64,000 nt of DNA, from contig CAWEYG010000003.1 in the NCBI GenBank assembly GCA_963813155.1, forward strand, positions 1 through 64,000, written 5' to 3'. Position 1 is the stretch's first letter; every line of letters begins with the position of its first letter. The notes under the pieces were generated by a model. The model saw nothing but the letters and a program-made list of their open reading frames with translations, ran no database searches and had not been told where the DNA came from. This document shows, one piece after another, positions 345 through 9,210 of this stretch. Made by a program: the position numbers and the translations under genes. The stretch is from an uncultured Acidobacteriota bacterium (GTDB lineage: Bacteria; Acidobacteriota; Thermoanaerobaculia; UBA5066; DATFVB01).

Positions 345-1148
345 ATGAATCGAGCGATTCCCTGGATCTTCGGAACGGGTGCGGTCCTGGCAATGGGAAT
401 GCGGACCGTTTCCGCGGTTCCGCCGCGGCCGGCGGCCCCTGAATCCCAGCCCGCCGGAGGGCTCACGGCCGACGCGAACCTGCTGGTGGAACGGGATGTC
501 GGAGTCGGCACGCGCATGGGGGGAATCATCGATTCCATCCAGGCGGAGAGGGGAGAATCGGTCAAGAAGGGCCAGCCGCTCGCGACGCTCGACCAACGGG
601 AGTTCGAGCTCGATCGCCGGGCCGCGGAAGCGGCGTTTTCGGCCGCCGACGCGGACTTCAAGCGCTACCAGGAGCTCTTCGGGCAGAAGCTCGCGAGCAA
701 GGCGGAGCTCGAGCAGCGGCGCGCCCATTTCGAACAGGCAAAAGTCGACCTCGAGAAGGCGAAGCTCGTCATCGACCGTTCGGTGATTCGCGCGCCGTTC
801 GACGGGGTCATCGTCGACCGCACGGTCCGCGTCGGGCAAAAGGTGCAGATCTCCGACACGACCCCGCTCTTCAAGATCACGGCGCTCGAGCCCCTTTTCG
901 CCCGCGTTTACCTGAACGAGAGCTGGCTCGATCGGCTGAAAGTGGGCGACCCGGTGTCGGTCGTTTCGTCGAAATTCGCGCGCGCTCGCTCGACGGGCAA
1001 GATTTCCTTTCTCGCGCCCGTGATCGATTCGGCGAGCGGGACGTTCCAGGTCATCGTCACCCTGCCGCGCGATCGCGACAGGATCTTCCGTCCGGGGAGC
1101 TCGGTCAAGATCAACTTCAATCCGCGGCGCACGGCCACTCGAGAGTGA
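345..1148 (+). CDS. Efflux RND/HlyD-type periplasmic adaptor (membrane fusion protein)
   Basis: N-terminal hydrophobic segment; lipoyl halves GESVKKGQPLATLD and IRAPFDGVI; alpha-hairpin; beta-barrel GKISFLAPVIDSASGTF; AGAGG RBS and TATAAT at 318-323. Confidence 0.88.
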   Translation: MNRAIPWIFGTGAVLAMGMRTVSAVPPRPAAPESQPAGGLTADANLLVERDVGVGTRMGGIIDSIQAERGESVKKGQPLATLDQREFELDRRAAEAAFSAADADFKRYQELFGQKLASKAELEQRRAHFEQAKVDLEKAKLVIDRSVIRAPFDGVIVDRTVRVGQKVQISDTTPLFKITALEPLFARVYLNESWLDRLKVGDPVSVVSSKFARARSTGKISFLAPVIDSASGTFQVIVTLPRDRDRIFRPGSSVKINFNPRRTATRE

Positions 1149-1861
1149 TGGCCCCGCGCCGATCTCGCGGTCGAATGCGCTCGACCATGGACTCGGTTTT
1201 TCTTCACGACATGAAGAATCTCGAGTTCCGCCTGAACCTGCTCCTCTCCAACCTCGAGGAGCACTACGGCGATCCCGATTTCAAGCGCAGCGTCGTCGAG
1301 TTGCTCCAATCCTCGCTGCAGAAAGTGGATACGGTCGTCGAGCGCTGGTCGGCGCACAAGGACGCCGTGATGATCAAGGTTCCCGTCGACGTCAACGAGC
1401 TGCTCGCCGACGCGGCGAACCGGGTCCGCGCCCGCGATTCCTACCGGGGCGACGGCGCGCTCGTTCCGCGGGTCGAATTCGCGGCGGAGCCGCTCCCCGC
1501 GGTCTGGGCGGACCCGCACTACCTGAGCGACGCGTTCGCGAGCATTCTTCAGAACGCCCTGGAGGCGGCGGGGCCGGGAGGAGTGGTCTCCGTCGAGAGC
1601 CACCCGGAGGACCGGCGCGGCGCGCCGTGGGTCGCCGTGGACATCGCCGACAACGGTCCCGGCATGAGCCGCGAATTCGTTCGAACCCGCCTCTTTCGGC
1701 CGTTTCAGACATTGAAGAGCTACGGGATCGGCCTCGGTCTCTACACGGCGCGCGAAATCATCCGCTCCCACCGGGGCGCCGTCTCCGTCAAGACCCGGCT
1801 CGGCCAGGGGACGATCGTGACCGTGAGACTGCGCGCGGAGCGGGAGGAAGCCCCCGCTTGA
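1148..1861 (+). CDS. Histidine kinase lacking a sensor domain (PrsK-like H-box)
   Basis: H-box FLHDMKNL, N-box QNALEA, G1 DNGPGM, F-box LFRPFQT, G2 GIGLGL; TGATG overlap with the upstream gene. Confidence 0.85.
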   Translation: MAPRRSRGRMRSTMDSVFLHDMKNLEFRLNLLLSNLEEHYGDPDFKRSVVELLQSSLQKVDTVVERWSAHKDAVMIKVPVDVNELLADAANRVRARDSYRGDGALVPRVEFAAEPLPAVWADPHYLSDAFASILQNALEAAGPGGVVSVESHPEDRRGAPWVAVDIADNGPGMSREFVRTRLFRPFQTLKSYGIGLGLYTAREIIRSHRGAVSVKTRLGQGTIVTVRLRAEREEAPA

Positions 1862-3246
1862 CGGTGGACGGCCGGCTCGCGATCGTCGAGGACGACCGAA
1901 TCCTGCTGGATCAGCTTCGCTGGGCGCTCAAGGGCAAGTTCGACGTCGTCGACGCCGGCAATGCGATCGACGGTGTCACGCTCGTCGACTCCGCTCCCGA
2001 CTGTTTTCTGATCGACCTTCGGCTCCCGCCTTCGAACGAACCGCAGGAAGGCCTCGACCTGCTTCGCGCCATCCGCCGGAAGGCCCCCGGCATCCCGGTC
2101 GTCGTGATGACCGGAGAGAAGGACCGCCGTTTCGCCTTGAAGGCGATCGAGCACGGGGCCTACGACTTCTTTCGAAAGCCGGTCGACCCCTCGGAGCTCG
2201 CCCTGATCCTCGGGCGCGCGCTGGAGCGGCAGCGGATTCTCCAGGAGAACCGGGCGCTCAAGGACGATCTGCTCGGGTCGCAGAGCATGGGAAACCTCGT
2301 GGGCACGAGCCCTCCGATGCGCGCGCTCTTTCGCTCCATCGCGAAGGTCGCGCCGTCGGACGCGACGGTCCTGATCACGGGGGAGAGCGGCACGGGCAAG
2401 GAGCTCGTCGCCCAGGCGATCCACCGCGCGAGCTCGAGGGCCTCCGGGCCCTTCATCGCCGTCAACAGCTCCGCTCTGCCGGAGGCTCTCGCGGAGTCCG
2501 AGCTCTTCGGACACGAAAAAGGGGCGTTTACGGGCGCCGTGGCCGCCCGCCCGGGAAAGTTCGAGCTTGCGCAGAACGGCACGATGTTTCTCGACGAAGT
2601 CGCGACTCTCTCCTCCGCCGTCCAGGCGAAGCTGCTCCGGGTTCTCGAAACGCGCCAGTTCGAGCGCGTGGGAAGCTCTCGAACGATTTCCGCGAACATC
2701 CGGATGCTCGCCGCCACGAACGAAGACCTGGCGCGCCGCGCGCGGGAGGGGACCTTCCGGGAAGACCTGCTCTACCGCCTGAACACGGTCACCCTGTCCA
2801 TCCCGGCGCTTCGGGACCGGGGAGGGGACATCCTCGTTCTTCTCGATTCGTTCGCCGAACGATTCGGCCGACAGTATCGGAAGAAACCGAAGACGTTCTC
2901 CCCGGAAGTGCGGGAGACACTCGACCGGTACCGGTGGCCGGGCAACGTCCGGGAAATGGAGCATCTCGTCGAGATGCTGACGTTGATGGTCGAGGACGAC
3001 GAAGTGCGGCCGGAGCACCTGCCCGGAGGGATCGGAACTGTTCAACCGGATTCGAGCGCCTTCCCGGCCGTCGCCGCCGCGGAACCGTCGCCCGCGACGC
3101 CTCTTCCGGAGATCGTCGCCCGGTTCGAGCGAAGCCTCGTGTCACAGGCGCTCGCTCGGTCGGGCGGCGTCAAGACGCGCGCGGCGAAGGCGCTGGGCAT
3201 CGACCCGGGCCAGCTGAAGTATCTTTGCCGGAAATATCAGCTCTGA
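1858..3246 (+). CDS. Sigma54-dependent response regulator (REC-AAA+-Fis HTH, NtrC/PrsR type)
   Basis: IVEDD and LIDLRLP receiver motifs, Walker A GESGTGKE, GAFTGA, WPGNVRE, C-terminal HTH; TTG start overlaps the kinase stop. Confidence 0.93.
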   Translation: MTVDGRLAIVEDDRILLDQLRWALKGKFDVVDAGNAIDGVTLVDSAPDCFLIDLRLPPSNEPQEGLDLLRAIRRKAPGIPVVVMTGEKDRRFALKAIEHGAYDFFRKPVDPSELALILGRALERQRILQENRALKDDLLGSQSMGNLVGTSPPMRALFRSIAKVAPSDATVLITGESGTGKELVAQAIHRASSRASGPFIAVNSSALPEALAESELFGHEKGAFTGAVAARPGKFELAQNGTMFLDEVATLSSAVQAKLLRVLETRQFERVGSSRTISANIRMLAATNEDLARRAREGTFREDLLYRLNTVTLSIPALRDRGGDILVLLDSFAERFGRQYRKKPKTFSPEVRETLDRYRWPGNVREMEHLVEMLTLMVEDDEVRPEHLPGGIGTVQPDSSAFPAVAAAEPSPATPLPEIVARFERSLVSQALARSGGVKTRAAKALGIDPGQLKYLCRKYQL

Positions 3247-3382
3247 ACGGGCAAAAAGTCGCCGGCCACGTGAAAATCCGGCGGTGAAAAATTAACCATT
3301 CTGTTCGGAAGTGACCCCGTGTTCACTTGTTAAGTGACTGTTTTTTAGTTGTTTGAGTCGATGAAGGGAAGACCAGCGGGGC

Positions 3383-3397
3383 TGGCTCGGACCTTGC
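3383..3397 (+). promoter_or_regulatory. Sigma54 (-24/-12) promoter for the repeat-protein gene
   Basis: TGGCTCG-GACC-TTGC vs consensus TGGCACG-N4-TTGC, directly downstream of a sigma54 activator gene; AT-rich tract upstream; RBS GGAGGA before ATG 3430. Confidence 0.8.
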
Positions 3398-3429
3398 GAA
3401 AGAAGAAGTCCAGCGAAAGGGAGGACAAG

Positions 3430-4172
3430 ATGGGAAACGATGTCAGGATCAAGCTCACGGAACAACAGGCCGCGAAGATCAAGGCCGGAACCGGAAAAGA
3501 AATGGAAGAGATCCGGGTCGGGAAGATCGGCAACGCCCCCGCGCCGAGCGCGTCGCTCTCGGGCAAGCAGGGGTTAACGGGCAAGCCGGGAATGTCGGGG
3601 AAGCCTGGTCTCTCGGGCAAACCGGGACTGTCGGGCAAGCCTGGACTCAGCGGTAAGCCTGGACTGACCGGCAAGCCGGGGATGTCGGGTAAGCCTGGCC
3701 TCAGCGGCAAACCGGGGCTCTCGGGCAAGCCTGGCCTCAGCGGCAAGCCGGGATTGTCGGGCAAGCCTGGACTCTCGGGGAAGCCGGGCCTCTCGGGTAA
3801 ACCGGGGCTGTCGGGCAAGCCTGGACTCAGCGGAAAGCCCGGGCTCTCGGGCAAGCCTGGCCTCAGTGGCAAACCTGGCCTGTCGGGCAAGCCGGGGCTC
3901 AGCGGCAAGCCTGGCCTGTCGGGCAAGCCTGGACTCAGCGGCAAGCCTGGCCTGTCGGGCAAACCTGGCCTCTCGGGAAGCCGGGGCTCAGCGGCAAGCC
4001 TGGCCTGTCGGGCAAACCTGGCCTCTCAGGGAAGCCGGGGCTCTCGGGCAAGCCTGGCCTCAGCGGCAAACCCGGCCTGTCGGGCAAGCCGGGGCTCAGC
4101 GGCAAGCCGGGACTGTCGGGCAAACCTGGCCTCTCCGGGAAGCCGGGGCTCTCGGGCAAGCCTGGACTCTGA
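3430..4172 (+). CDS. Collagen-like (Gly-X-Y) hexapeptide-repeat protein: 42-aa leader + 34 x (L/M)(S/T)GK(P/Q)G; one-base deletion at ~3975-3977
   Basis: Direct translation; adding one G to TCTCGGGAAG continues the repeat to CTC-TGA at 4167-4172 (247 aa), followed by a terminator. Confidence 0.85.
3556..4169 (+). repeat. 18-bp coding tandem repeat, 34 units, synonymously diversified
   Basis: Units such as CTC TCG GGC AAG CCT GGC / CTC AGC GGC AAA CCG GGG with mostly silent differences. Confidence 0.95.
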
Positions 4173-4194
4173 GGAAAACCGTTTATACGGATTG

Positions 4195-4226
4195 GACGCC
4201 CCGCGAAAGCGGGGCGTTTTTCTTTT
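4195..4226 (+). terminator. Rho-independent terminator
   Basis: GACGCCCCGC-GAAA-GCGGGGCGTT followed by TTTCTTTT, between convergent genes. Confidence 0.9.
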
Positions 4227-6422
4227 CTACCAGAAGATTCGCCGGGTCCAGTGGTAGAAGATGTTCCACCACTGAGCGGCATACGCCTTCCGCGGGCCGA
4301 TGAGCTTGACCTCGGCCGTCATGCCGGAAGCGAGATCGCCGTCCCCGTTGTCGAGGTAGGCGACCGCGACGAACCGTTCGGGTCGCTCCGCGATCCGAAG
4401 CGGCTCGTCGGAGCCATGCGACGTCGCGGGCAGGGTCTCCGCGGCCGCGGAGATCGACGAGATCTTCGCGCGAAACTTTCGAAACGGAAAAGCCGGAATG
4501 TGCACGAGGATCGGCTCGTCCACTCGAAGCGAGTGCAGCAGCCGTTCGGTCACCGGGATCTCGATCCGGAGGGTCCGGACGTCGCCGACCGTGAACAGCG
4601 CGGAGCCGACGGCGACGGAAGACCCCAGGAGGTCCTGCGGCCGGTGCGACAGGATCGTTCCCCCGACGGGAGCCCGCACGAGAAGGGCGTCCCGGAGACC
4701 CTCGCTGGCCTTCAGCGCGGAACCCGCGGCGACCGCCCGCGATTCGAATTCCGTGGAGTCGGCCGCCGACGCGGATTCGCGCCCGAGGCTGGCCTGGCCC
4801 TCGAAACCGCTTCGCCGCGCGGTCAGCTCCTGGATCCGGCTCTCCACCGCGCGGCTGGAGAGGCGGGCGAGGGCGTGCCCCGGCCCGACGCTGTCTCCTT
4901 CGCGGACATTCACGGCCTCGACCGTCGAGTCCGCCGGCGCCGACACGCGAACCGAGCGAGAAGGCTTCAGGACGACGGGCACCTCGAAGGTTTCGTGCGG
5001 CCAGGGGATCACGAGCGCCAACAGGAGGACCGCGCCGGCCGCCGCGAGGCGTCTCTGGATTTTGCGAGACATGAGGTACTCCTTCTTGTCGAGATAGAAC
5101 ATCCGGAGGACGTCGGTGAACTTCCGAATCTTCTTGCGGAACATTCGAAACACGACGAGCAGCGTGAGCAGCGGCGTCCATTCGCCGGCGAACATGCCGA
5201 TGATGTGGGCGAAAAGCGCGCTGATCGCGATCATGATCGAGCCCATGTACGCGATCGCCAGAGGGCCGTAGATCAGGAAGACGCGGCGCTTTCTCTTTGA
5301 AAGGACCGGGACTTCGACCGGCAGCCGAAAGATGTACTTCTGGATGAGCATGCCGATGTAGTGGAACGACTGCGGCCGCAGCTCGGGAATCTCGAGCAGG
5401 TCCTCGACCGCGTGGTACCCGTCGGTCGGCGTCATCGGGTTGATGTTGAAGAAGACGGTCGAGATGCCGGTGTACAGCATGCCTTTGTACGCGAAGTCGT
5501 GGATGAACGTGTCGGGATACGTCGCCAGCCACACCGCGGTCGCGGCGACGCAGATGTAGCTTTCGATGTAAATGCCGCCGACGTTGACCCACAGGCGGTG
5601 CCATTTGCTCTCGAAGAGCTCGGAGTCCATCGTGTCGGTGAAATACGCCGGCAGGAAGAAGAACAGGGCGAAACCGATGCTGTGGACCTCTCCGCCGTAC
5701 ATCTTCATCGTGTAGGCGTGGCCCAGCTCGTGGAACATGGCGATGAACGTCACAATCAGGTAGAACTGCAGGACGTCGATGAAGGGCTTGTCGAGAAACG
5801 CGTAGAGCCGGACCGTCTCGGTCCAGATCTTCGAGAAATCCCGCACGAAGACCGCCGCCGTCAGGCCGAACAGCACGAGGCCGACCGAAACGACCTCGGG
5901 GCTCCAGATCCACCGCACGTACTTCACGGTTTTGTTCAGGAACTCGTTGGGGTCCGCGATGGGGAAGAGCATGAGGAAGATGTTGAAAGAGTTCGCCTTT
6001 TCCTCCGCCTTGAGCTTGCGCGCATCTTTCAGGCGCTGCATCAACGCCAGGCCCCGCTCGCTTCCCGACTGCGCGAGAAGGTCCATCTTCTGGAGGTTTT
6101 CTTCGTAGTCGAGCACCAGGGACGTCTCGATGCGGTCGCCGGGGTGCGCCTGGACGTAGGCGTCGCGGATCTCCGCGTGGGTTCGCGTCCCGTCGAACAG
6201 CTCGACGAGGCCCCACTCGGCGTCGGTGAAGGTGTAGATCTTCAGCGAATCGGGGTTCTTGACGACCCATTTCGATTCGCCCATCTGGACGAGGTGCCGG
6301 ATGATGACGTCGGTCCGGAGGGCCGGCTGTTCGCGGGCGGGGCCGAGGCGGTGAGCGAGGGCTTCGGTGACCTCCCCGGTGCGGGTCGTGGAGAGGAGCG
6401 TGGCGCGAGAACTGATGCTCAC
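4227..6422 (-). CDS. PqqD/RRE-like domain + M50 site-2 metallopeptidase + HlyD adaptor fusion
   Basis: N-terminal WVVKNPDSLKIYTFTDAEWGLVELFDGTRTHAEI; FHELGH (HExxH); NINPMTPTDGYH (NPxxxxDG); several TM helices; C-terminal VSAPADSTVEAVNVREGDSV...VRAPVGG adaptor; GTG start overlaps the upstream TGA. Confidence 0.85.
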   Translation of the reverse strand: MSISSRATLLSTTRTGEVTEALAHRLGPAREQPALRTDVIIRHLVQMGESKWVVKNPDSLKIYTFTDAEWGLVELFDGTRTHAEIRDAYVQAHPGDRIETSLVLDYEENLQKMDLLAQSGSERGLALMQRLKDARKLKAEEKANSFNIFLMLFPIADPNEFLNKTVKYVRWIWSPEVVSVGLVLFGLTAAVFVRDFSKIWTETVRLYAFLDKPFIDVLQFYLIVTFIAMFHELGHAYTMKMYGGEVHSIGFALFFFLPAYFTDTMDSELFESKWHRLWVNVGGIYIESYICVAATAVWLATYPDTFIHDFAYKGMLYTGISTVFFNINPMTPTDGYHAVEDLLEIPELRPQSFHYIGMLIQKYIFRLPVEVPVLSKRKRRVFLIYGPLAIAYMGSIMIAISALFAHIIGMFAGEWTPLLTLLVVFRMFRKKIRKFTDVLRMFYLDKKEYLMSRKIQRRLAAAGAVLLLALVIPWPHETFEVPVVLKPSRSVRVSAPADSTVEAVNVREGDSVGPGHALARLSSRAVESRIQELTARRSGFEGQASLGRESASAADSTEFESRAVAAGSALKASEGLRDALLVRAPVGGTILSHRPQDLLGSSVAVGSALFTVGDVRTLRIEIPVTERLLHSLRVDEPILVHIPAFPFRKFRAKISSISAAAETLPATSHGSDEPLRIAERPERFVAVAYLDNGDGDLASGMTAEVKLIGPRKAYAAQWWNIFYHWTRRIFW

Positions 6423-8845
6423 GGCATCAGGGGCCAGAGCTTCGCCCAGAACCACCGGGCGGGCTTGCGGAGCACGGCAAAGCCGAGCCGCCGCGTGCCC
6501 GTCGAGATCTTCGCGTTCCCGAGCATTCCCGGGAGGATCATTCCGCCCCCGTTGTCGAGAACGGCGTCCGCAAGGATGAATCGGTCTTCGCCCTCTTCCC
6601 GGACGACGGGCGAAACCCTCCCGATCTTGCCCCGAAACACCGTGGAGGGATAGGAGTTGAGCTTGACGGCCACGTCCTCGCCTTCGCGCAGGAGGCTCGA
6701 ATCGACCTCGCGAATCGCGACTTCCACCTCCGCGGATCGCGTGTCGGCCAGCACGCAGAGCTCCGCTCCGCTCCCGAGCATCTGTCCGATCCGTTCTTCC
6801 AGGTGCGGGGTGATGAGAACGCCCGTGGCGGGCGCGCGAATTTTCGTCTGGGCGAGATTGCTTTCCGCGACGGCAGCGCGCGCCCGAGCTTCCTCCAGCC
6901 GCGAGGAAGACCGCGCCAGCTCCGAAGTGTCGCCGGACGACTGGTTCTGCGCGACGGAGTTGCGGGCGATGTCGAAGTCCGCGCGGGCCTGAGCGGCGGC
7001 GGCCTGGTAGTCCGCGTCGTCGAGCGTTGCAACGACGTCGCCCTCTTTGACGGAGTCGCCTTCCCGATGGAGAACGGACGCGATCGTTCCCGGAACGGCG
7101 GCCGTGAGCGCCATCCGCCGGCCGGGGAGAACGCGCGCGGTTCCCGTGAGTCGGATGTTCCAGGGCAGCACGACGAGCGCGAGGAGGATCACGGTGCCGA
7201 TCACGAGGCGACGGCGGAGCTTGTACTTCGGGATCGCGGCCAGCTGCCGCTGCTTTTCGAGCAAGGGCTTCCAGAAGCCGGCGAGAGGGACCTGCTGGTA
7301 CAGCTGGGCATTGCGCATCGCAACGGTGGCCTGGTTGACGAGAATTTGAAGGAGATCGCGCCCTTCCTCGTCGAACACCCGCGATTCTGCGCCTTCGAAC
7401 GCGATCGTTCCGAGCTTGCCTTCCTCGTCCTGGAGGATCATCGCGAGGTAGGAGCGCATCCCGCTCGCTTCGAAGAAGACGCGGAACTTCTCCGCAGTCT
7501 CCGCCCGGTCGGTCACGATCTTGCCGTCGGCCTGCTGCGTCACCGACACGTCGTTCCCGCCGTGGTAGACCCATTCGAGAAGCTCGGTCGTCCGGGCGAT
7601 CGAGGGTTCGGACCGGTTGATTTCGTCGACTCCGGAAACGGCCCCCAGGCGGAGCTTTCCCCGCTGGACGACGGCGACGGAGCAGCGGTCGATGTCGACG
7701 AGCGCGGCGCTCGCGTTCGCGACGGTCTTCATCACGCGGTCGAGGTCGAGCGTCGAGGTGATTTCGCGGCTGACGGCGAGGAGCGCATCGAGCTCTTCGA
7801 CCCGGCGCTCGGCGCCGTAGCGCCGCGCGTTGTGCAGGGACCGAACCGCCTGGTGGCCGAGATCGGTCAGGAGAAGGGCGTCGGCCTCCTCGAATCGCGG
7901 GCGTCTCCCTCGCTTGTTGACGATGATCATCACGCCGACCGTTTCCTCGTCTTCGAGGAGCGGGAGCGTCAGAACGGACGAAACCGGGAACGGGCTTTCC
8001 TGTCGCAGGAAATGCTCCGGGGGCAGCTCGTTCTCGAACGTCGCCTCCCGGGCGCCGATGGCGTCGCCCACGACCGAGGCTCCGATGGAATCGGGCGGAT
8101 GGGGGATCTCGTAGTTTTCGTTGATGGCCGTCGCGGCGAGAGAGACTTCGCCCTCGCTTCCCTGGAGCACCCACAGCGAGGCAGCTTCGGCGTTCGCGAA
8201 GTCCACGGCCTTTCGCGCGATGATCGCGGTGAGCTCGTCCCAGTCGAGCGTCGAGCCGAACGCCTTGGAGAGGTCGTACAGGTTCGTCAGGCGCTCGATC
8301 GCGTGCAGCATGCCGGACGTCTTCTTGTCCTGCTTCAGGCTGCGCGCGACCGCCTGGGCCGCGTCGGGGACGAAAGTGGAGAGATTCTCGTGCGCGGAGC
8401 TCAGGTTCGCGTCGCCTTTGCGGAAAAGGACGGCGGCGACACCGATCACTCCCTCGTCGGCGGCCAGGGGAATGGCCAGGCAGCTGCCGAAGTTGCGGGC
8501 GCCGGGCGGAAGCCACGGGTCGTCGGAAACGAGGATCTCCGACGACGTCAGCGAGAAGGACTCGCGGTCGCGAATCAGCCGGCGGACGAAGCCGTCGCTG
8601 CGGGGAACCGATTGCTGGAGGATCCGACCGAGCCCTTCGCCGGTCGCGCCGGTGCAGACGAAAACGGGATGGATCGGGTCTTGCGTCCAGACGAGGGCCG
8701 CGTCGGCTCCGGCGAGCGCCGCGAGCCAGCGTGCCGCCCAGGCGGACGTGTGCGCGAGCGTCTCGCAGGCAAGCAGTTCGGCGAGAGCGGCCGCAAAATC
8801 GCCCTCGGAGGGCGTCGGTGGGGGGCTATCCGGCTCGTCCGACAT
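6419..8845 (-). CDS. Triple-GAF domain + TM + HlyD/MFP adaptor protein
   Basis: Three GAF-like repeats (SCLAIPL, SVLTLPL, SYLAMIL blocks); TM LVIGTVILLALVVLPW; lipoyl/barrel motifs REGDSVKEGDVVATLD, IRAPATG, PGMLGNAKI. Confidence 0.85.
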   Translation of the reverse strand: MSDEPDSPPPTPSEGDFAAALAELLACETLAHTSAWAARWLAALAGADAALVWTQDPIHPVFVCTGATGEGLGRILQQSVPRSDGFVRRLIRDRESFSLTSSEILVSDDPWLPPGARNFGSCLAIPLAADEGVIGVAAVLFRKGDANLSSAHENLSTFVPDAAQAVARSLKQDKKTSGMLHAIERLTNLYDLSKAFGSTLDWDELTAIIARKAVDFANAEAASLWVLQGSEGEVSLAATAINENYEIPHPPDSIGASVVGDAIGAREATFENELPPEHFLRQESPFPVSSVLTLPLLEDEETVGVMIIVNKRGRRPRFEEADALLLTDLGHQAVRSLHNARRYGAERRVEELDALLAVSREITSTLDLDRVMKTVANASAALVDIDRCSVAVVQRGKLRLGAVSGVDEINRSEPSIARTTELLEWVYHGGNDVSVTQQADGKIVTDRAETAEKFRVFFEASGMRSYLAMILQDEEGKLGTIAFEGAESRVFDEEGRDLLQILVNQATVAMRNAQLYQQVPLAGFWKPLLEKQRQLAAIPKYKLRRRLVIGTVILLALVVLPWNIRLTGTARVLPGRRMALTAAVPGTIASVLHREGDSVKEGDVVATLDDADYQAAAAQARADFDIARNSVAQNQSSGDTSELARSSSRLEEARARAAVAESNLAQTKIRAPATGVLITPHLEERIGQMLGSGAELCVLADTRSAEVEVAIREVDSSLLREGEDVAVKLNSYPSTVFRGKIGRVSPVVREEGEDRFILADAVLDNGGGMILPGMLGNAKISTGTRRLGFAVLRKPARWFWAKLWPLMP

Positions 8846-8874: not shown

Positions 8875-9210
8875 TCAAAAGCTCGCGACCGCTTCCTCCA
8901 GATCCTGATGAATCTCGAAGACGGAGTCGAGCTGAGTCATCTCCAGGAGCTTCTTCAGATTCGTTCCCGGCGCGAGCAGCTTGGTCTGGCCGCCCTCTTT
9001 CTGCGAATTGGTCAGCGTTCGCACCAGGGCGCCGAGCCCCGTGGAGTCGACGAGGCCGAGCGCCCCGCAGTCGACGAGGAGGTTGACCTTGCCCTCTTCG
9101 AGGAGGCGTGTCACCGAGCGCTTGAAAGAAGCCTCGGACTCGCCGATCACCAGATCTCCCGAGAGAGAGACGATACTCACCCGGCCATCTTCGCGAATTG
9201 AGATTTCCAT
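8875..9210 (-). CDS. STAS-domain anti-sigma factor antagonist
   Basis: LSGDLVIG...LVDSTGLGALV...LEMTQLDSVF, SpoIIAA/RsbV-like, 111 aa. Confidence 0.9.
   Translation of the reverse strand: MEISIREDGRVSIVSLSGDLVIGESEASFKRSVTRLLEEGKVNLLVDCGALGLVDSTGLGALVRTLTNSQKEGGQTKLLAPGTNLKKLLEMTQLDSVFEIHQDLEEAVASF

Follow-up and report, generated by a model that had tools for sequence, protein, structure and literature searches.

What does a bacterium gain from a gene that spells out one hexapeptide, GKPGLS, 34 times? The question is raised by positions 3430-4172 (plus strand) of a 64,000-nucleotide (nt) stretch of DNA, hereafter the window, from an uncultured Acidobacteriota bacterium of the class Thermoanaerobaculia (contig CAWEYG010000003.1 of assembly GCA_963813155.1), where an initial annotation made from the letters alone had seen a cationic collagen-like protein. 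From the anatomy of the gene, its relatives and its conserved neighbourhood, we consider it probable that it encodes a leader/core precursor peptide under sigma-54-dependent induction, onto which a convergently encoded fusion protein of a RiPP recognition element (RRE)-like domain, an M50 metalloprotease and an HlyD domain docks, cleaving the precursor and probably also exporting it (RiPP: a peptide made on the ribosome and then modified post-translationally).

The gene is composed of two parts and is followed by a terminator:

3430..3561, plus strand: putative precursor leader of 44 residues, with a GGGAGG ribosome-binding site at about 3419-3424 and an ATG at 3430
3562..4172, plus strand: repeat core of 34 GKPGLS-type units, with one base missing in unit 24 and TGA at 4170-4172
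4194..4229, plus strand: intrinsic terminator, its stem 11 bp long (8 of the pairs being G-C) and followed by a T-run, 22 nt past the TGA

Units 1-23 are intact, share the frame of the ATG and occupy 3562-3975 with 18 nt each. Unit 24 comprises only 17 nt (3976-3992), with the missing base at about 3976-3977, and is followed by nine intact units (3993-4154) and a last unit, GKPGL plus TGA (4155-4172). Tandem Repeats Finder (TRF) reported a single array of period 18 with 33 copies. The count given in the initial annotation holds: there are 34 units with a single lysine apiece and without acidic residues, and the stop comes immediately behind the last of them. The order of an N-terminal part followed by repeats is likewise borne out, the former having 44 instead of the 42 residues given before. 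The one-base frame break had been missed, however: with 743 nt, a length not divisible by three, 3430-4172 is not one open frame, and the roughly 67 uninterrupted Gly-X-Y triplets described earlier are obtained only with one base supplied. In the assembly as given, the ATG frame holds 48 triplets without interruption, rising to 67-68 if the gap is bridged. A comparison of all pairs of the 33 full units gave 1540 synonymous versus 186 non-synonymous codon differences, which argues that the GKPGLS peptide unit is under purifying selection, with the units behind the break included; both TCN and AGY codons are used for serine. Judged by these codons, the array is far beyond chance and selected as a peptide, and it is no product of recent slippage.

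The leader connects this gene to a family. A leader search limited to proteins of 110-352 residues returned two proteins with the same leader and very different repeat tails, one of them an NCBI "hypothetical protein" from a Thermoanaerobaculia metagenome-assembled genome (MAG). Searched against 1.84 billion representatives, a leader profile matched 88 clusters at E <=0.001 and 70 at E <=1e-10. In a class-wide search of Thermoanaerobaculia, 80 of 401 genomes contained a leader match, with 4 of 4 genomes in the window's own family, with 53 of 57 in a second and 17 of 38 in a third family, and few matches, some of them weak, elsewhere. A scan of species-representative genomes gave 79 loci, which by title belong to Thermoanaerobaculia or Acidobacteriota MAGs in 78 cases and to Acidithiobacillales in one. 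Translation of all loci yielded 98 distinct leader-sharing proteins, and ten columns are invariant in an alignment of 29 leaders. Behind this leader stand tandem repeats whose period varies from 3 to 22 residues, built from units such as LSPK, SGKSL, SPSLK, ATK, AAKSMR, ARNVQA, ANTPR, AAGKSIAGR and ARSARNVEN; in the neighbouring genus g2, near-identical leaders precede LSPK or SGKSL depending on the species. Most tails are strongly cationic. One clade (L093, L095, L096, L103, L106, L114, L116), which often has two tandem precursor genes per module with the same leader, reverses the charge of the rest of the family to a net -6 to -28, with units in both genes such as AQDLS, ESADTSI, EEGLR and GAEIGEAGLR. 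The pairing of a conserved leader with a variable core, as expected of an RRE-dependent leader/core precursor system, is thus found in these alignments. The window's leader matched nothing in Pfam and NCBIfam at E <=10, its profile nothing among the PDB sequences, and the ESM Atlas gave no usable match to a leader query. One distant protein with a doubled leader showed faint matches to ParD (E 0.0045, below cut-off), ApyA and a lanthipeptide leader, of which we make no use as support for the family.

In the window, the gene is part of a seven-gene module, in which HlyD1, kinase, regulator and precursor genes are followed by a convergent operon:

345..1148, plus strand: HlyD1, an HlyD-type membrane-fusion protein of 267 residues (Pfam HlyD_D23 and HlyD_3; NCBIfam RND_mfp, 170.6 bits)
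1145..1861, plus strand: short histidine kinase of 238 residues without a sensor domain (Pfam HATPase_c; PrsK-like C-terminal half)
1858..3246, plus strand: sigma-54-dependent response regulator with receiver, AAA+ and HTH_8 domains, its start being approximate
3383..3397, plus strand: sigma-54 -24/-12 promoter-like element, TGGCTC-N5-TTGC, 47 nt 5' of the ATG
4227..6422, minus strand: candidate RRE-M50-HlyD fusion of 731 residues, whose GTG start at 6422 overlaps the stop of the GAF-HlyD gene
about 6078-6335, minus strand: PqqD-like domain of this fusion (residues about 30-115), whose C-terminus is the HlyD domain
6419..8845, minus strand: GAF-GAF-HlyD membrane protein of 808 residues (Pfam GAF_2, GAF, GAF_3, HlyD_D23 and HlyD_3)
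8875..9210, minus strand: STAS-domain protein of the anti-sigma-factor-antagonist type (Pfam STAS, 63.9 bits; NCBIfam ant_ant_sig, 62.5 bits)

HlyD1, kinase, regulator, M50-HlyD and GAF-GAF-HlyD genes stand together in 59 of the 60 full 12-kb loci, with an orphan precursor copy (L041) as the sole exception. The STAS gene, first in the minus-strand operon ahead of GAF-GAF-HlyD and M50-HlyD, has a homolog at this place in 59 related loci. The regulator, whose start was inferred from the same-genus ortholog, matched Pfam Sigma54_activat (227 bits), Response_reg and HTH_8, and reached 429.9 bits with NCBIfam PEP_resp_reg, below the cut-off of 502.6; the kinase reached 139 bits with PEP_his_kin, below the cut-off of 300 and over profile positions 480-678 only.

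Taking the promoter into account, TGG-N9-TGC is located at most 150 nt upstream in all 86 distinct upstream regions of the family, orphans included, versus 106 of 5000 random 150-nt genome windows (2.1%), and no sigma-70-like site was found within 3200-4400. The gene therefore combines a -24/-12 element with a nearby enhancer-binding protein, as a predicted member of a sigma-54 regulon should. Further upstream, 3305-3340 contains AAGTGA/TCACTT half-sites as inverted repeats about 95-120 nt from the ATG; an AAGT-containing motif lies at a similar distance in many related loci, and this may be a candidate site for the sigma-54 activator. It was additionally observed that the start of the kinase gene overlaps the stop of HlyD1 and that the kinase consists of the phospho-acceptor and ATPase parts only, which suggests that HlyD1 may act as its sensor partner.

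The fusion protein on the opposite strand matches Pfam Peptidase_M50 (35 bits, cut-off 27.2), HlyD_D23 and HlyD_3, and its membrane part carries the motifs HELGH and NPMTPTDG, a pair that recurs in 79 of 89 loci. With HExxH and NxxPxxxxDG both in place, it is by its motifs a predicted M50/site-2 metalloprotease. NCBIfam daptide_HExxH aligned over profile positions 6-369 of 379 (E 2.3e-34, 119.2 bits, below the cut-off of 300) and YydH/LiaK more faintly (E 2.2e-11, 43.9 bits, below the cut-off of 225). The N-terminal 140 residues are conserved across orthologs, and PqqD is the commonest Pfam family there, matching 14 of 29 orthologous N-termini with a best E of 2.5e-4. An AlphaFold2 model computed from a 29-row alignment places three strands and then three helices at residues of about 40-112, with a predicted local distance difference test (pLDDT) score of 85-92 over 31-110. 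A Foldseek search of the PDB returned named RiPP-pathway proteins in 11 of its top 14 rows, the other three having generic titles. Among the named ones are TbiB1 with a leader peptide, PqqD, another lasso B1 protein, the heterocyclase TruD and the oxidase ThcOx; three further rows bear the title of a sactipeptide study only, and two that of "Heterocyclase". We take these matches to be to RRE domains, and the untitled rows to be presumably CteB and LynD. The small RRE chains among them scored a probability of 1.00, a target-normalised TM of 0.67-0.75 and E of about 0.01. A search with the domain profile against PDB sequences gave one chance-level match (E 0.28). On the basis of the AlphaFold2 model, these Foldseek values and the PqqD matches of the orthologs, an RRE-like fold of the N-terminal domain is supported but not proven.

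The pairing of such a protease with repeat peptides reaches beyond the class. Of 401 genomes of the phylum, 55 contained M50-HlyD matches at E <=1e-20, and full-length homologs in other Acidobacteriota classes are 24-33% identical. We took 23 loci from those classes for a check of the neighbourhood. A sigma-54 regulator flanks the M50-HlyD homolog in 21 of them, and in 17 the space between regulator and protease holds a small gene whose tail is a tandem repeat, with units including KKGLG, ASKSAL, GGRTP, SPAKRV, NSPLS, GGGMA and AARPA. Two more (L143, L145) have a related leader with a non-repeat core, and the remaining four (L131, L133, L142, L144) are unassigned or have too little flank, L144 showing a short, weakly repetitive open reading frame with another leader type. 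At L136, L137, L139, L140, L141 and L146-L148 the repeat tails are preceded by a second, unrelated leader type with a Lys-rich ...KKSLI... start. Its occurrence beside distant M50-HlyD homologs suggests that leader and recognition domain co-diverge. Since repeat peptides stand beside this machinery in other classes too, the pairing is a feature of the phylum and not of one order. In public databases the proteases are named "efflux RND transporter periplasmic adaptor subunit", "HlyD family efflux transporter periplasmic adaptor subunit" or "putative peptide zinc metalloprotease protein".

We propose a model in which the NtrC-type regulator and the sensor-less kinase, whose gene would be translationally coupled to that of the HlyD-type membrane protein, activate the sigma-54 promoter of the precursor gene. 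The 44-residue leader would then dock on the PqqD-like domain, predicted to be the cytoplasmic N-terminus of the convergent RRE-M50-HlyD protein, whose site-2-type metalloprotease part would take off the leader and possibly cut further. The repeat tail would leave by way of a periplasmic conduit formed by the three HlyD-domain proteins, as a variable, lineage-specific payload that in the window's genus happens to be (GKPGLS)n. It might be released either in one piece, as a polyion of about 150-200 residues, or after a cut at every unit, and it might serve as a signal, as an antagonist or antimicrobial, or as a component of a matrix. Several observations weigh against this model. The window's own N-terminal domain has no Pfam PqqD match at E <=1, and no Foldseek match reached E 0.001. 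The tails are hydrophilic, unlike classical substrates of site-2 proteases. Among the conserved neighbours, unlinked genes not having been searched, there is no ABC, RND or MFS transporter and no TolC or other outer-membrane factor; the module therefore lacks an energised transporter and an outer-membrane channel, export would proceed without an obvious energy source, and the three HlyD-domain proteins do not appear to make up a type I secretion or tripartite efflux set at this locus. No modifying enzyme was found among the conserved module genes, the rest of the genome not having been searched, so that by a strict definition the product would not count as a RiPP. In its assembled form, the copy in the window cannot yield the complete product. 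Finally, short metatranscriptome contigs (X20), 90-99% alike, lie on the repeat at 3583-4137, and this weak hint of expression may be due to DNA carry-over or relatives.

Taking the repeat by itself, a true bacterial collagen, i.e. a (GKPGLS)n triple helix or polyproline-II bundle acting as a structural or adhesive polymer, would account for the Gly-X-Y triplets counted above, for a Pfam Collagen match of 88.7 bits (cut-off 27.2) and for the strong purifying selection on the unit in the five GKPGLS proteins. However, glycine at every third residue is found in only 5 of the 98 family members, a sixth match (L010) being a frame-shifted reading. The GKPGLS tail is likewise restricted to five proteins, all in the window's own group, and their closest relatives have 4- and 5-residue units incapable of forming a triple helix. 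Gly-X-Y is consequently to be seen as one state of a hypervariable payload; compared across these sequences, the periodicity is incidental and lineage-specific and no conserved property, and the helix or polyproline bundle suggested at first is not supported as the function of the family. The initial annotation was right that there is neither a trimerisation domain nor an anchor: the protein stops after its last unit, its leader has no domain match, and no globular domain flanks the repeat. Scores with NCBIfam SclB, SclA and Lcl (69.5, 41.8 and 36.4 bits) stay far from the cut-offs of 325, 400 and 500. Going by host-guest studies of collagen peptides, a chain charged by lysine throughout is furthermore unfavourable if it lacks acidic partners, if Ser occupies Y and if Pro, unhydroxylated, is found at Y alone. 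It should be noted that, once exported, the tail could yet adopt a triple-helical or polyproline-II structure extracellularly, which would be compatible with a precursor; as an account of the gene, we nevertheless regard collagen as very improbable. Alternatively, the protein could be a disordered polymer, charged and equipped with a small N-terminal module for folding or binding, that remains intracellular. It might then bind polyanions, for instance, or regulate the M50 protease and the signalling module or serve as their decoy. This would agree with an N-terminus in which no Sec signal was visible by eye, with the absence of a transporter from the module and with the many Ala/Lys/Arg-rich tails, which resemble tails of the histone-H1 type, and it could draw on the ParD match, an antitoxin of the ribbon-helix-helix type, faint as it is and confined to the distant doubled-leader member. 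On the other hand, the acidic tails behind the same leader argue against a role fixed by positive charge, and three HlyD periplasmic-adaptor domains together with an RRE-protease are hard to explain for a cytoplasmic protein, so that we consider this quite unlikely. The leader/core precursor, which we favour, had in part been anticipated by the suggestion of a precursor cut into identical hexapeptides: the processed precursor fits the M50 neighbour with its PqqD-like domain and the leader shared by 98 relatives, and the release of identical hexapeptides would be a possible additional step. In its extended form, the precursor would be a peptide dispenser, fed leader-first into the protease and cut at each repeat to yield up to 34 identical unmodified hexapeptides as autoinducers or antagonists, lineage-specific and sensed through the arm of HlyD1, kinase and regulator. 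We hold this to be unlikely; if true, bacteria would have in it an equivalent of the pheromone and neuropeptide precursors that are built from tandem repeats.

A further alternative concerns the window copy only, which could be a true pseudogene, or a phase-variable gene turned off by a one-base slip, leaving an orphan copy elsewhere in the genome as the functional one. In the ATG-3430 frame, unit 24 reads TCGGGAAG, where other units have TCGGGGAAG or TCGGGCAAG. Strictly read, this frame runs for 275 residues to 4257, with the last 92 unrelated and crossing the intrinsic terminator at 4194-4219, while the final 10 units and the TGA fall into a different frame. Programmed frameshifting was set aside: the frame-1 reading codes for unrelated residues and continues across the terminator, and the orthologs can be read without any shift. 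That the assembly as given is one base short speaks for a lesion, as does the closest DNA run (X1, with pieces at >=99%), in which no contig spans 3916-3989 and the base count in near-identical DNA therefore has no independent check. In addition, an intact second copy is present in the same genome at C3:354687-355289 (minus strand; locus L003, 1039-1644). This copy encodes 201 residues, ends in GKPGL-stop and has a sigma-54 element of its own. It is flanked by an amino-acid permease-like gene on one side and a short-chain dehydrogenase on the other, and every M50-HlyD gene is far away; orphans of the same type are found in G104 (L016, from an unpublished genome) and L041. Against a lesion stand the 10 units after the break, which are still perfect GKPGLS with synonymous variety and reach the usual terminus of the family just ahead of the terminator. 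Contigs of related strains (90-95% alike) from two runs have one extra base exactly behind 3977, and the ortholog of the same genus (G104, unpublished genome) is intact in a matching gene neighbourhood, with 189 residues ending in GKPGF-stop. By our reading, frame-broken tails occur in 8 of the 40 related loci whose contigs are named contig_N versus 0 of the 39 other loci, a pattern suggestive of repeats having been misassembled. In the same genome, contig C4 is likewise full of indels. We therefore find a pseudogene or phase variation rather doubtful, and most likely the missing base is an assembly error in the repeat or a very recent lesion.

The C4 contig had itself offered a candidate third paralog at C4:119843-120598, which was rejected because the whole of C4:116416-135225 runs collinear to C3:1-20566 (positions 1-20566 of the window), the two being 83-91% identical. 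Frame changes affect every module gene, the alignment of 10,353 columns shows 208 gaps and the repeat gene has units of 16-19 nt; this region most likely represents a co-binned related strain or an error-rich contig. The contamination figure of 3.76% for the genome may include it. In nine further loci (L010, L052, L055, L086, L087, L094, L101, L109, L111) the tails lose their frame part-way and run on as Arg/Pro/Gly-rich sequence of up to 572 residues, so that public gene calls at such loci give misleading long low-complexity proteins.

If the leader/core precursor model holds, a system of ribosomal peptides that goes unrecognised in current annotation is widespread in Acidobacteriota, a phylum of soil bacteria that are abundant and for the most part have not been cultured. 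The system would unite an RRE, a site-2 protease and an HlyD adaptor in one chain with two further HlyD proteins and sigma-54 control, and its payloads would consist of tandem repeats only, whose unit, period and even charge differ between neighbouring genera. It would offer a test case for how leader-guided intramembrane proteases handle long soluble substrates, for whether bacteria use multi-copy peptide precursors and for what drives the fast turnover of payloads. The locus also advises caution, as a Pfam Collagen match on a small bacterial open reading frame need not mean collagen.

Our search found no published description of the module or of HlyD-fused RRE-M50 proteins, although the supplements on daptides and RRE-Finder may list them. 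Closest to the fusion protein are the daptide clusters, for which the publication describes an RRE fused to an intramembrane site-2 protease that removes the leader. In MpaP, as is predicted here, an N-terminal PqqD-like domain is fused to an M50 membrane protease, the daptide_HExxH profile aligns over nearly the whole length, and the protease gene has small genes next to it whose products keep their N-terminal leader conserved while the C-terminus varies. In contrast, the window protease reaches 119 bits where 300 are required and has an extra C-terminal HlyD domain. An oxidative decarboxylase, an aminotransferase and a methyltransferase are all missing from the module genes, and the last residue of the core is Leu, not the invariant C-terminal Thr of daptides; long tandem-repeat cores and sigma-54 regulation come in addition. 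By sequence, the window system would thus not be a member of the daptide family.

The core is more reminiscent of the cyclopropylglycine pathways with TvgA, (TVGG)n, and TigB, (TIGSVS)x5. These reports too describe bacterial precursors whose core is a short motif in tandem, their authors propose several identical small products, and genes for a membrane peptidase and a transporter are proposed to serve release and export. Those pathways are defined there by a radical-SAM cyclopropyl synthase, of which the window module has none, and TigB contains up to five repeats compared to 34 in the window gene. Similarly, EpeP/YydH, TglG and TmoG (of the pearlins) are membrane M50 enzymes that process small ribosomal peptides, EpeP being described as the presumed agent of both cleavage and export of its peptide, and TglG as freeing a C-terminal product from a scaffold peptide. 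These systems have modifying enzymes, an epimerase or amino-acid-adding ones, and no HlyD fusions, and the YydH/LiaK match of the window protease is below cut-off.

With Scl1/Scl2 and Lcl (PF01391), the repeat gene shares uninterrupted Gly-X-Y triplets without hydroxyproline machinery and a Pfam Collagen score above threshold; it differs from them in lacking a trimerisation domain, an anchor and charge pairs, and in a Gly-X-Y pattern that is not conserved within its family. In its overall layout, the module is comparable to peptide-signal and bacteriocin loci. There, the precursor is encoded together with the machinery for its processing and export and with a kinase and its regulator, and a conserved leader precedes a payload that diverges between close lineages; fungal tandem-repeat pheromone precursors, in turn, carry many identical units each. 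In contrast to such loci, the window regulator is a sigma-54 enhancer-binding protein, and signalling or killing would be a presumed role of the module. We therefore see the system as known parts in a new combination, a candidate peptide system in which an RRE would guide a site-2 protease, with HlyD domains fused in, control by sigma-54 and payloads made of tandem repeats.

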